Source: Mytilus edulis
Taxonomy: Eukaryota
Direction of reading: 5' to 3'
Assembly (NCBI RefSeq): GCF_963676685.1
Contig: NC_092350.1
Span: 7,316,001-7,380,000 of the forward strand
DNA: 64,000 nt
The notes below the pieces were generated by a model. It was not told the DNA's origin. It saw only the letters and a list, made by a program, of their open reading frames with translations, and did not search any database. Of this stretch, positions 4,161 through 52,099 are shown piece by piece (within the stretch, counting starts at the first letter, position 1; each line of letters starts with the position of its first letter). Position numbers and translations under genes: made by a program.

Positions 4161-5117
4161 AAATGTTTCTGTTTTGTTGAAAAATTGAAAGGTCCTTATT
4201 TAGTTCCTCTTCAAAGGTACGAGTTTGTTACAAATATCTTGACCCTAGCATAATTCATCAGTTTGGATGATTGACTCTGTCCTTGAGGCAAGGTCAGAAA
4301 GAAAACTGGTATTTGCAGCTTCAATGCCAAGGACACATCATTTAGGAGAAGTACTCGTCTGTCATATTTGTTTTTCATGAACTATTTCTGTTAATAGCTT
4401 TCTTGGTTTGAATTATCTCCCCTTGTTTTGTCCTGGGCATTATATAGTCAACTTCCTGATATACAATATGGATTTTGCTCATTGTTGAAGGTTGTATAGC
4501 AACGTATACGGCTGCTAATAATCAGCCTTATTTGAACTTTGGAGCATCGATAGACTAGTTGTCTCATATGTAATCATATGTAATCATACCACATCTTATT
4601 TTATACACTGGTTGGCTGGAATCAGAATATTGATTAAGGATATGTTGATCTAGTTGATTTTGAGGTTAAAATGTTGAGGCCACAGACCAAAAATGGAAGT
4701 GAAAGGTTTTTGTCGAGCCTTCGACTTTAGTCGAAAAGTGAGACTAAGCAATCCTACATTCCGTTGGCGGCGTCCACAAATATTCACTCCATCATGTTAA
4801 AGTTTTTGAAATTTTAATAACTTTCTTAAACTATACTTGATTTCTACCAAACTTAGACAGATGATTGTTTATTGTCAAAAGCTAGTATCCAGAGGTAAAT
4901 TTTGTAAAAATAAAATTCCATTTTATCTGTATTTTACTTATAAATGGACTTAGTTTTTCTGCTGGGAAACATTACATTCACTCTGTGGTTAAACTATCCT
5001 GGGTTTATACCAAACATGGACAGAAGCTTGTTTATGATCATAAGATAGTTAATCCAGAAGCAATTTTTGTAAAAAAAAATCCATTTTTTCAGTATTTTAC
5101 TTTTAAATGGACTAAAT

Positions 5118-5443
5118 GTACTGTTATACCACTGTCCCAGGTTAGGAGGAGGGTTAAGATCCTGCTTACATGTTAAACCCTGCCACATTATTTATGTATG
5201 TGCCTGTCCCAAGTCGGGAGCCTGTAATTCAGTGGTTGTCGTTTGTTTATGTGTTACATATTTGTTTTCTCGTTTGAAATGTTTTACATTGTCTTATCAG
5301 GGCCTTTTATAGCTGACTATGCGGTATGGGCTTTGCTCATTGCTGAAGGCCGTACGGTGACCTATAGTTGTTAATGTCTTTCATTTTGGTCTCTTGTGGA
5401 CAGTTGTCTCATTGGCAATCATACCACATCTTCTTTTTTATAT
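5118..5443 (+). mobile_element. Abundant SINE-like repeat (3' end ...CTCATTGGCAATCATACCACATCTTCTTTTT) carrying a twister-like motif; inserted in a HINE
   Basis: Other copies or fragments at about 657-918(-), 4440-4602(+), 7193-9412(-), 19441-19760(-), 22738-23040(-), 25110-25150(-), 43915-44053(+) and 50790-51131(+). Confidence 0.85.
5129..5235 (+). ncRNA. Twister ribozyme-like motif, circularly permuted (type P5)
   Basis: P5 CAGGTT/AGCCTG (plus CCACTG/CAGTGG), GA-GGG at 5149-5153, NAA at 5175-5177, P2 CCCT, GC, P3 CACAT/ATGTG, P4 CCTG-TCCCAAGT-CGGG; both pseudoknots can form. P1 and P2 are imperfect. Confidence 0.55.
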
Positions 5444-5904
5444 TAGATTTTCTGCTAGGAAACAACACTTTCACTCTGTAGTTAAAGTTTTAAAATTTTT
5501 AATAACTTTCTTATACTATTTTGGATTTGTACCAAACTTGGACAGAAGCTTGTTTATGATCATAAGATAGTTTCCAGAAGTAAATTTTGAAGAAAAGAAA
5601 AAATCCATTTTTTCAGTATTTTACTTTAGATGGACTTAGGTTTTCTGCCAGGAAACAACGCTTTCACTATGTGGTTAAAGTTTTTAAAATTTTAATAACT
5701 TTCTTATACTATTTTGGATTTGTACCAAACTTCGACAGAAGCTTGTTTATGATCATAAGATAGTATCCAGAGGAATATTTTTATTGATTTTTTTCCTCAT
5801 TTTTGTTGAGCCTGTGATTAACAGCAAAAGTAGGTGAGACACTGGGTTCCGTGGAACCCTCACAAATTTTTTGGTGAACTTCAAGGAATTTTGCTGCAAT
5901 TTAA

Positions 5905-7729: not shown

Positions 7730-7797
7730 TTACAGGCGTACTTGGGACGTGCAAACATACAGAATATGGCAAAGTCAGACATGCTAGCACTCCTCTT

Positions 7798-8238
7798 AAA
7801 CTGGGCTAGTGATGTATCCGTAAAACATGAACAGGATCACAACCCTCCTCCTAAACTGGGCTAGTGATGTATCCATGCAACATATGAACAGGATCACAAC
7901 CCTCCTCATAAACTGGGCCATTGGTGTATCCATGCAACATATGAATAGGATCACAACCCTCCTCATAAACTGGGCTAGTGGTGTATCCATGCAACATATG
8001 AACAGGATCACAACCCTCCTTATAAACTGGGCTAGTGGTGTATCCATGCAACATATGAACAGGATCACAACCCTCCTCATAAACTGGGACAGTGATGTAT
8101 CCATGCAACATATGAACAGGATCACACACCCCCCCCCCCCCTTAAACTGGTCTAGTGGTGTATCCGTACAACATATGAACAGGATCACAACCCTCCTCCT
8201 AAACTGGGACAGTGGTGTATCCGTACAACATATGAACA
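7798..8238. repeat. 57-bp minisatellite, about 8 copies
   Basis: Unit AAACTGGGCTAGTGGTGTATCCATGCAACATATGAACAGGATCACAACCCTCCTCAT; explains the 19-aa repeat ORFs. Confidence 0.95.
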
Positions 8239-27420: not shown

Positions 27421-28302
27421 ATATTTTTTACACCTTTCAATTAAATATATATTTTGGCTGCAAAATGGTTATCCAAGGATAATTTCTTTAAATAAAATTT
27501 ACATCACACATTTTGGCTTATTGTAACTTTGGCTGTTACCTTAATTTTAAAAATAATGATAACCATTTAATATTGAAATAAAAACTACAACTCCAAATTA
27601 ATTCAATATTAAAAAAAAACATGAAAAGTTAAAATCTTCTTTCAGTATTGAATTTTTTCATTCTTCCATGCCTGGTACTTCATGATTAAAATCTTTTCAT
27701 CAACTAACACTTTCATGGGGATATTTAACACACAGAGTAGGCTAATATAGGTGGTTAAGGTTGATATGGATAAGAGAGAAATTGAGGGAGGTGAGGGTAA
27801 ATAATGAGAGTGGTATGTATGGATATATGTTCTATAGGGAGAAAAGGACAAATTGAGTAGATGAGGGTAATATTGAGAGTTGTATGTAAAGTAGTAAGGG
27901 TGAGAATATTAATTTCTTTATAAGGGCTTGATGTACTGGTCTAATGGAAGTGCAGTTTTCTTTTTTCTCCTGCGTAGTTCTTATATTCTTCAAAAATCTG
28001 GAGTAAACATTTTAAAAGTACTGCTGTCAAAAATTAACAAGTTAACAGCCTTTCTTGTTACTGATTATGTGCTGCTGATATAAACATTGTAGCACTTCTC
28101 AGTGACTAGATAGGGTTGCAGCTTTTCATCAATTTTAACAGCATTATCTTACAGTTATAGATGCAGTGATCAACACACCTGATTAATGTTTCTTTCATTC
28201 TAAAAAAATTTGCTTTCCAGTCTTATATAAATTTCTTGGTCTAATGTTTCTTCTGTATCTTTGCTGTCAAGTTTGTAGTTCATTCGTATCATATGGTTTT
28301 TT

Positions 28303-28408
28303 CACAGGCACTTGTCTCAGAATTTTGTTTTCCTATATACCTTAATATAATAATATATGTGTTATATAAAGGTATATAGGGGGGGAAATTCTGAGACGAG
28401 TGCCTGTG
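28303..28408. repeat. 106-bp near-perfect palindrome (CAC...GTG), probable fold-back MITE
   Basis: CACAGGCACTTGTCTCAGAATTT / AAATTCTGAGACGAGTGCCTGTG plus CCTATATACCTT / AAGGTATATAGG. Confidence 0.8.
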
Positions 28409-28409
28409 G

Positions 28410-29089
28410 TTTTTGTCGAGCCTTCGACTTTAATCGAAAAAGCGAGACATAGCGATCCTACATTCCGTCGGCGTCGTCGGCGGCGTCCACAAATATTCAC
28501 TCTGTGGTTAAAGTTTTTGAAATTTTAATAACTTTCATAAACTATCCTTGAATTGTACGAAACTTGGACAGAAGCTTGTTTATGTTCATAAGATAGTATC
28601 CAGAAGTAAATTTTGTAAAAATGAAATTCCATTTTTTCCGTATTTTACTTATAAATGGACTTAGTTTTTTTCTGCCAGGAAACATTACATTCACTCTGGT
28701 TAAAGTTTTTAAAATTTTAATAACTTTCTTAAACTATCCTGGAATTGTAAGAAACTTGGCCACAAGCTTGTTTATGATCAGAACTGAGATAGTATCCAGA
28801 AGTAATTTTTGTAAAAATAAAATTCCATTTTTCCCGTATTTTACTTATAAATGGACTTAGTTTTTCTTCTAGTTAACATAACATACAGTCTGCAGTTAAA
28901 GTATTTAAAACATTTTTAAGATTCTTAAACTAGCCTGGATTTTTACCAAACTAGGACAGAAGCTTCTGACAATCAAAAGATAGTATCGAGAGGAATAATT
29001 TTATTGATTTTTTTTCATCATTTTTGATGAGTGTGTGATTAACATCAAAAGTAGGCGAGACACTGGTTTCCGCGGAACCCTTACAAATT
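28410..29089 (+). mobile_element. HINE-like element family B, second copy
   Basis: Same ends and (CGT/CGG) microsatellite as 4707-5872. Confidence 0.75.
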
Positions 29090-45143: not shown

Positions 45144-45515
45144 TTTATGTAGACGAAACGCGTGTCTGGCGTATTAATTTATAATCCAGGTATATTTGAT
45201 AACTATTTACACCACTAGGTTGATGCCACTGCTGGTGGACGTTCGTCCCTGAGGGTATCACCAGCTAGTCAGCACTTCGGTGTTGACATGCATATCAATT
45301 ATATGGCCATTTTTATAAATTTTCTGAAACAAAACTTTGAATAAGATTACCTTAGCCGTATTTGGCACAACATTTTTGGAATTTTGGGTCCTCAATGCTC
45401 TTCAACTTTGTACTTGTTTGGCTTTATAACTTTTTTGATCTAAGTGTCATTGAAGAGTCTTATGTAGACGAAACGCGCGTCTAGCGTATTAAATTATAAT
45501 CCTGGTACCTTTGAA
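45144..45515 (+). mobile_element. Retrozyme-like repeat: 315-nt monomer bounded by minimal type I hammerhead motifs
   Basis: Direct repeat TATGTAGACGAAACGCG(C/T)GTC at 45146 and 45461; second copy gtca-TTGAAGA-GTCT-tatgt-AGAC-GAAA-CGCGCG-TC. Confidence 0.75.
45443..45488 (+). ncRNA. Degenerate minimal type I hammerhead ribozyme
   Basis: Stem II GTCT/AGAC, GAAA, palindromic stem III CGCGCG, GUC site at 45479-45481; core C3 is mutated to U and stem I is weak. Confidence 0.6.
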
Positions 45516-50758: not shown

Positions 50759-52099
50759 TTGATTAATTGTCCTTATGTTGTGCAGTCAAAACATCTTCTC
50801 AGGTGAGGAAAGGGTTGGAAGCTCACAGAAAAGTACAACCCTACTACATTCTGTATGCCCTTGTACATAGTCAGGAGCCTTTAAATTGAGGCTGTATTAG
50901 GTTGCTGTCCCCATTGTTCAGTTTTTAATTTTATCAGTAATTAAGCCTTTGGTTTTTATTTTTTTTATTTTGTTAAAACATTTTATCATGGTTGAGTCTT
51001 TCATAGCTTAATACCAAATGGTATTGGTACCGCCCATTGTTGTAGGCCATACACTGCCCATTTGTTGTTTAAATCCTTGACCTTAGGTCTCTGTTGGAGG
51101 AATGCTGTCAAATTGGCAATCATACCATATCTCGTATTGGTACACTTTATACGAAAAGTGTTAAAATGACTCTGCTACTAACACCAGATAAGAATCCCTT
51201 TGTTTTTATATTGAGACATTTGTTGCATGCAAGTCATTTGAAGCATCAACCATTTGCAATTGATGTTTATAAACTATAACATTTCCTCAGCAATGAATCG
51301 CCAAAATCTTGGTCATAACCCTTTTTTGGCATATATTACATAAAGTGGCGTGGAGCAGAGATAGTTAAACGGATATTTGCTACAGTAAAATCAAGTTTTA
51401 TGAACGGCAAGCTTAAAATACAATACAGTTATCTCTATTTTAATGCCACATATTAAAATAAATGTCATTTAATAAATATTTTGGCTTAAAAATGGCATAT
51501 ATGAAAAAGTCTGCGAAACTGTTGCATCGTCTTTAGCATCCTTAAACAATCATATGTATACTCTGGATGTCAAACATGAATACTAAAGGTATTTTTACTT
51601 TTTGTACGCTTCAGAAAGGTTTCAATATAGACAAAAAGAAGATTTTGAGGCTCAAAATCTGACTATCTTGTTTATCTTTTGAGAAACTACATACCCGAAA
51701 AAAAAAATCGGAATTTAAAATGGTGGATTTCTTAGTTACGAACAGGTAGAACGTGGACTCTAACCCCTCAAAATATTTGTCAACGTCCAATGAAAATTAT
51801 AGTTACAAACTTATTGCATTAGAATAATTATTGTGTATAAGTTTATTAACATTTGGGTGCAACAAACTAAAGTTAGAAAACTGAAACCAATTTTGGGATG
51901 TACAGATGTATGGACGTACCAAGAACAAGGGTAAACATAATACCCCCTCCACAACTGAAAGCAAATATCATTTGACAGAGGCTGCTGTTAATATAAACTG
52001 CCCATTTTAGGGTCAACATGAAAAGATAACATTTCAAAGATTGAATGGTATCTTTGGTAGAAATGGCTGACGATAATAAAAAAGAATAGTATACTGACT

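Follow-up and report, generated by a model that had tools for sequence, protein, structure and literature searches.

Penelope-like elements carry hammerhead ribozymes with a palindromic stem III; for these, the available text of PMC6765202 proposes cleavage of tandem transcripts by ribozyme dimers, with ends that are possibly ligated into circles. The Naiads are a clade of these elements whose diagnostic marks include an N-terminal GIY-YIG endonuclease and the motifs CxC, GxKF/Y and DKA (PMC8557442, available parts). They have been reported to lack canonical hammerheads, and the word 'twister' is absent from the main text of the same paper, in which Craig et al. 2021 (PMC8557442) took the hammerhead-less Naiads to mean that hammerheads may be dispensable to Penelope-like elements or parasitic on them. 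Another class of self-cleaving RNA, the twister, has been described from RTE LINEs, where it occupies the 5' end (PMC8501958; PMC7761336, both from the accessible text). In the twisters covered by the available portions of the sources, helix P1 is dispensable and defects in P2 are tolerated (PMC11662667), as are insertions upstream of the cut (PMC11662667; PMC8501958). Here we describe a conserved motif in the 3' UTRs of bivalve Naiads. On balance we favour reading it as a P5-permuted twister-type fold that likely cleaves itself at N^AA, and we predict that two copies pair with each other through palindromes that take the place of P1.

The starting point was the window, a 64-kb stretch of mussel DNA analysed as a whole, in which a sequence-only reading had described a twister-like motif with a predicted cut at 5175^5176. 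All of the elements which it named lie at the coordinates claimed. The features of the window copy are as follows.

5117..5443, + strand: 5'-truncated 3' end (3' UTR) of a Naiad Penelope-like element of family A1, recognised by its fixed 3' end, variable 5' ends and the extension of other copies into a reverse transcriptase (RT) ORF
5129..5143, + strand: 5' strand of P5, in two helices, from the element check and covariation
5145..5148, + strand: 3' strand of P2, with one mismatch in the window copy and four G-C pairs in the intact copy L049
5149..5153, + strand: GA-GGG, from Rfam consensus lines and covariation; 5149 is the predicted general-base G; after it come the conserved A and a strand that pairs with 5208-5210 in the larger pseudoknot
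5154..5165, + strand: palindrome 1 region, GGGATCCC in intact copies and eroded in the window copy
5167..5174, + strand: palindrome 2, AACATGTT in intact copies, of which 6 nt remain in the window copy
5175..5177, + strand: N^AA with the predicted cut 5175^5176, 5176 being the predicted general-acid A; position inferred from the twister-P5 alignment
5178..5183, + strand: 5' strand of P2 (5178-5181), then the two-base pseudoknot strand GC (5182-5183), which pairs with 5213-5214
5184..5202, + strand: P3 hairpin, strands 5184-5188/5198-5202
5203..5218, + strand: P4 hairpin, strands 5203-5206/5215-5218, with loop L4 at 5207-5214
5219..5235, + strand: 3' strand of P5
50781..50904, + strand: decayed motif copy in another insertion, of a related family, found with our own covariance model (19.6 bits, rough E 0.011)

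In the window the motif retains the catalytic G, the catalytic A and both pseudoknots, and its defects are a G-U pair in P4, worn palindromes and the P2 mismatch, which had been flagged at the outset and is indeed present (one mismatch in 5145-5148/5178-5181). The CAGG ending of P4 noted earlier for the decayed copy near 50872 was confirmed and is the family norm, the CGGG of the window copy occurring in 2 of 30 aligned copies. By itself this copy does not fold above chance (z = -0.89). The Rfam scan of the whole 64-kb window gave 0 twister matches, and a narrow scan of 451 nt around this copy gave a partial twister-P1 match only (13.7 bits, E 7.1). Support for the twister reading comes from intact copies and from other families, not from this copy alone. 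L002-L004 and L015 have the same 5' breakpoint and agree with it over as much as 3.3 kb of flank, so that the window copy was multiplied together with the repeat around it. It is a worn passenger in another repeat and probably a weak cutter at best. That surrounding repeat, at about 4705-5872, has internal tandem units and has itself been multiplied with the insertion in the same four loci. A longer copy, L006, shares this 3' flank, suggesting either that the site received a second insertion or that the copies have one origin.

The high copy number claimed for the repeat (8 or more fragments) was borne out, with 13 separate fragments of the family 3' end in the 64 kb. Further features were seen in the window. 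On the minus strand, 1363-1465 holds a motif of B type, the family with an ACC loop, from which the P3/P4 part is deleted (own covariance model, 46.6 bits). Also on the minus strand, 7790-8238 is a 57-nt tandem array of 7.8 copies built from the 5' half of the motif; it is followed by the rest of a Naiad 3' end, which is interrupted by an insertion of about 280 nt with long inverted ends. Finally, a long near-perfect inverted repeat at 28300-28411 has sub-threshold Rfam miRNA matches and probably represents transposon ends.

The repeat had been described as SINE-like, and this part of the earlier description had to be given up. In a repeat search of the 1.37 Gb genome, which returned 6,448 first-look candidates, the copies proved to have a fixed 3' end and variable 5' ends, and the longer ones reach the end of an RT ORF. 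A SINE, being short and non-coding with a fixed 5' head and no ORF, is ruled out by such ends, and the repeat is the 5'-truncated end of an autonomous Naiad. The motif starts about 370 nt past the RT stop in 29 of 30 copies anchored on the ORF, and a genomic walk upstream led to a Penelope-like element of about 4.5 kb (L121) with the motif in its 3' UTR. The domains are ordered as N-terminal GIY-YIG, CxC, DKA and C-terminal RT. The sequence LIYLVT...YVGQTG is found upstream of the RT in L119, L120, L122 and L123 (YVRQTG in L121), and by eye this N-terminus (IY...YVGQTG) resembles those of Naiad_Scon and Naiad_Mmer. GPKY and DKA are present, and the CxC position reads T*NC, with TGA in 18 of 20 copies. 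Pfam made no GIY-YIG call on the endonuclease fragment that was submitted, and it gave only a weak RVT_1 match (E 0.0012). Partial tandems, a pseudo-LTR arrangement, occur in L119 and in L120/L121, the latter pair being one event with flanks in common; in these a copy of the 3'-terminal 243 or 36 nt stands before the 5' end of the element. Neither of the two independent tandems (243 and 36 nt) extends back to the motif, and for this reason adjacent motif pairs are not observed. As judged from these sequence features, the host is a Naiad-clade Penelope-like element with 5'-truncated copies and pseudo-LTRs.

The window family A1 and its sister A2 also look like selenoprotein Naiads (for A1, the ORFs of L069-L088 and L119-L123). 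In-frame TGA codons occur additionally at two endonuclease positions matching those of Naiad_Scon and Naiad_Mmer, and the SECIS_1 model scores 41.4 bits in A2 (L147:1177-1241, + strand), above its gathering threshold, and 24.9 bits in A1 (L121:2814-2880, - strand), below it. In the available text of PMC8557442, selenoprotein Naiads are reported for clams and spiders only.

The fold was assessed on an alignment of 12 divergent family representatives, five from the mussel's own genome and seven from metagenome contigs, over which 20 pairs were counted. The rows were chosen by hand and the structure was drawn from the same rows, with three chance matches to the search pattern left out as controls; these lack both the outer P4 pair and palindrome 2. 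For the seven metagenome representatives the pattern demanded the core letters and left P2, P3, P5, the outer P4 pair, the variable pseudoknot pairs and the palindromes free. Across the 12 representatives 83.8% of cells are paired, against 68.2 +/- 1.9% when shuffled (0/500), and sliding the strands as a control gives 32-46%. The covariation score is 0.48 against 0.19 shuffled (0/500), and 13 pairs have changed on both sides (7/500); here and below, x/500 are counts of shuffles and not probabilities. These double changes fall in all six pairs of P5, in 3/4 of P3, in 2/4 of P4 and in one pair of each pseudoknot. P4 is 100% paired. The two-base pseudoknot, NC with L4, is paired in 95.8% of cells, with AU, CG, GC and GU at its variable pair, and the larger one, L4 with the strand after GA, in 88.9%; at the third pair of the latter, UA is seen in 6 of the 12, GC in 2 and GU in 1, with 3 unpaired. 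The check for covariation therefore came out well for P3, P4, P5 and both pseudoknots, and gave P2 only one countable pair, since the A and B types differ in register. When P2 is parsed by its anchors, it has four pairs in the A families and mostly three plus a bulge elsewhere, and it is mismatched in some single copies. Both N^AA with the general-acid A and GA-GG with the general-base G are present in 12/12 representatives; the pattern demanded them of the seven metagenome sequences and not of the five own-genome families.

Comparison with Rfam likewise gave a divided answer. The intact A1 copy aligns to the whole of the twister-P5 model, and its score of 21.3 bits (E 0.012 in 171 nt) stays under the gathering threshold of 37.6; a scan of 18.6 kb listed no twister for four loci that bear the motif. 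Left unconstrained, the same copy folds at minimum energy into P5, P2, a short hairpin, P3 and P4. The P5-permuted twister proposed at the outset is supported by this fold, by the covariation across families and by the full-length, sub-threshold twister-P5 match, and from such comparisons of sequence we consider it very probable that a real, conserved twister-type fold sits in the tail of these Naiad elements.

What sets the motif apart is the space where P1 should be. Beside the cut no normal P1 can be drawn, with at most 2 of 4 pairs in each of 13 sequences. The distance from P1 to the cleavage site had been noted as a weakness of the twister reading; the gap is real and is taken up by the second of two conserved palindromes, which lie in the 20-23 nt that separate the GA-GG strand from the cut. 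Palindrome 1 has at least 8 paired nt in 8 of the 12 representatives and 4-6 in two others, whereas two single copies lack it; six different self-complementary centres are used (GATC, CTAG, GCGC, CATG, TATA and TGCA). Palindrome 2 ends at the cut and has at least 8 paired nt in 11 of 12. On its own the palindrome segment folds at only 0 to -1.1 kcal/mol. The gain from forming a self-dimer exceeds that of dinucleotide shuffles in 7 of 12 representatives (at most 21/500 each), and is indistinct from shuffles in the other five (B2, M3, S282, S301 and S296) and in the window copy. A hairpin needs no self-complementary centre, so that the repeated double changes in these centres point to pairing between two molecules. 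By analogy, the palindromes are predicted to replace helix P1, with each motif pairing with a second copy.

The motif is shared by several families. Two exact 17-mers of P4/L4 occur 18,709 and 9,886 times in the genome, and their reversed controls 0 times. The copies that were fetched fall into at least five families (A1, A2, B1, B2 and B3), of which B1 is nearly identical to the 3' end of Naiad_Mgal. The Naiad RT profile was found upstream of the motif in sense orientation at 14 of 90 loci, counting L103, where it is part of a neighbouring insertion. Elsewhere in the same 90 loci it occurs once antisense-upstream, three times antisense-downstream and 0 times sense-downstream. A pattern scan of metagenome contigs gave at least 121 stretches, most from the sets of two records, and from these three multi-copy clusters and four single copies were used. 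Since a Naiad RT lies upstream at only 1 of the 64 metagenome loci with at least 600 nt of upstream flank, most of the metagenome motifs are not placed in Naiads. Viral contigs gave 0 pattern matches, and a search of the mussel's own genome for the clam type of P4 gave 18 matches against 9 for the control, mostly mutated copies of known families. Among the published Naiad consensi (PMC8557442 supplement), the last approximately 450 nt of 24 out of 54 were examined by eye. The motif is present in five of these 24 (Mgal, Bpla, Mphi, Scon and Mmer, named by header order), a different motif bearing a palindrome in seven and neither in twelve.

This second conserved 3'-UTR motif, with a variable perfect palindrome, is seen in other Naiad families of oysters, an ark clam, a pearl oyster, a hemichordate and the present genome (L008, L021, L102, L103, L111, L137, L138 and L172). 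Rfam found no ribozyme match on L103, which carries it, and from its sequence the motif is a candidate for another self-cleaving RNA. The genome also holds a family of canonical type-P1 twisters (L165:1483-1542, - strand, 55.4 bits, E 3e-10; also L155, L164 and L166), followed by an AT-rich tail, and the Naiad motif may have come from this family. Also seen were minimal type I hammerheads whose stem III is palindromic, weakly in the window (45444-45487, + strand, 23.4 bits) and at 29-34.5 bits in L147 and L116. A hammerhead reading of CTGATGAG, which lies upstream of the motif in longer copies, was rejected, as it has no GAAA partner and Rfam finds none on L049.

Searches for a footprint of cleavage came back blank. 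In four RNA runs, for two families and both strands, read ends did not pile up at the predicted cut, which is uninformative given that the reads come from thousands of old copies on both strands; among the indexed sequence sets that hold the repeat, none is recorded as RNA. At one A2 locus (L151:1629) read starts accumulate in 2 of the 4 runs at a point about 147 nt further downstream than the predicted cut, and the depth on the same strand drops in three runs of one study and less so in the fourth. This may be the end of one expressed locus. In the DNA, 5' truncation points do not cluster around the cut, with 5 of 159 falling within -2..+1 as in the neighbouring bins, and 135 of the 159 sampled copies begin upstream of the cut and so run through the site. 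Two of seven short ORF-anchored copies had suggested 3' ends at the cut, and this was ruled out by the genome-wide A2 test, in which 18 copies break off at the cut and 14 at a control AA. The units of the 57-nt array that end near the cut are not a trace of cleavage either, since microhomology (ATGTT) explains their junction. In an anole Penelope-like element hammerhead cleavage is unnecessary for insertion in vitro, and no reads were detected at the hammerhead site in the available text of PMC11167929. As this hammerhead element is likewise blank, the missing footprints neither help nor strongly hurt our case. We regard the motif as very likely to be catalytically active.

The mechanism that we propose is as follows. 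Two motifs, in a tandem transcript or in two RNAs, would pair through their palindromes and so supply the equivalent of a P1 helix under the active site. The paired motifs would then cut at N^AA, which lies some 310 nt short of the element's 3' end, and tandem or read-through transcripts would be trimmed into units that are possibly re-ligated. The RNA that is reverse transcribed is mostly uncut or re-joined, as judged from the 135 of 159 sampled copies that cross the cut site. The motif would thereby hold the place that dimer-cleaving hammerheads have in other Penelope-like elements. Since tested twisters withstand a missing P1, a faulty P2 and extra sequence upstream of the cut, activity gains in plausibility, but there is less need for an obligatory dimer, and monomers may cut. 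The strict form of the proposal, a natural dimer-dependent twister in which two RNAs pair via both palindromes and build each other's P1 and active sites, is put forward tentatively, at somewhat less than even chances.

A monomer that cuts without P1 is a less likely account. The palindromes would then dimerise the RNA for another purpose, for example loading of a dimeric RT-endonuclease, or would damp the rate of cutting. The tolerance just mentioned (PMC11662667; PMC8501958, available portions) fits this, as does the ability of palindrome 1 to form a short P1-like hairpin in the intact copy; a Penelope-like polyprotein is predicted to be dimeric in the accessible part of PMC11167929; and in several families, as in the B1 and M1 folds, the AACC of palindrome 2 is able to pair with the GGUU that follows the catalytic G, and such pairing would inhibit. 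However, the two palindromes occupy exactly the P1 slot and abut the catalytic strands in 10 of 12 representatives, and a hairpin would have no need of a self-complementary centre.

More doubtful still is that the fold derives from a twister and no longer cuts, serving in the 3' end as a structural signal for protein binding, dimer linkage or positioning of the RT. This would account for the absence of a cleavage footprint in the RNA and DNA searches, for the 135 of 159 copies which cross the site, and for the imperfect P2 and larger pseudoknot of several families. Against it, the catalytic G, the AA of the cut site and both pseudoknots have been kept in own-genome families that were anchored on P4/L4 only, and also in three published consensi recognised at their 3' ends, and the core stayed while P3 and P5 were fully turned over. 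Lastly, chance resemblance, or palindromes that are DNA-level signals without RNA structure, is hardly credible: it would suit the window copy alone, which has no significant fold or Rfam score, but not the compensatory changes in five helices including two pseudoknots, the G-U pairs in helices, the six different palindrome centres, or the three chance matches without the outer P4 pair and palindrome 2.

If the dimer-dependent twister is true, Penelope-like elements would have drawn on two or more unrelated ribozyme classes to reach a dimer-gated self-cleaving RNA, the 'ribozyme-less' Naiads would carry a ribozyme, and dimer-gated cleavage would be a general step of Penelope retrotransposition. 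The twister fold in several bivalve Naiad families, together with the design of palindromes by the cut, argues that the function is what is selected and that the class of ribozyme is interchangeable. The finding would also add about 28,600 exact P4/L4 matches (the sum of the two 17-mers) in one genome to a motif that goes uncalled in Rfam, and would offer a dimer-gated twister for RNA engineering. Our literature search, outside of which most subscription journals lay, gave no paper that ties twisters to Naiads or describes the palindromic form, and in the available text of bioRxiv 10.64898/2026.07.22.740005 the word 'twister' has 0 occurrences. The supplement of PMC11662667 may already list some of the motif sequences, since that study, in its accessible portion, searched genomes with a P4/L4 16-mer and reached bivalves among the new hosts.

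Looking at the nearest known systems can help to place the motif. Naiad_Scon and Naiad_Mmer (PMC8557442) share the domain order, the in-frame TGA at matching endonuclease positions, a SECIS-like element and the twister motif in the 3' end; they differ in host, which is mussel-like here, going by the match of family B1 to Naiad_Mgal, and PMC8557442 annotates no ribozyme in them. The twister variants of Perere-3 (RTE clade) in Schistosoma mansoni are likewise retrotransposon twisters with a weak or missing P1. Those, in the available text of PMC8501958, are of P1 type and lie 5'-terminally in an APE-RT LINE, and target-site duplications adjoin their cut, whereas the Naiad motif is of P5 type, in the 3' UTR of a GIY-YIG Penelope-like element whose copies cross the site. 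With the type-P5 twister (RF02684, clan CL00120) the motif shares the strand order, the GA-GG core, N^AA, P2, P4 with the CCAAG loop and both pseudoknots, the intact Naiad copy aligning to model positions 1-58 of 58. Unlike it, the Naiad motif scores under the gathering threshold, always has P3, often has a P2 of three pairs and a bulge, and has the two-palindrome segment of 20-23 nt in place of a P1 beside the cut. A parallel in design is found in the minimal type I hammerheads of canonical Penelope pseudo-LTRs (PMC6765202, PMC7761336, accessible text). The Naiad motif belongs to another ribozyme class, has two palindromes rather than one, and sits in a clade reported to be without canonical hammerheads. 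In both, the ribozyme is at the end of the element, a palindrome replaces the stable helix beside the cut, and cleavage as a dimer is proposed.
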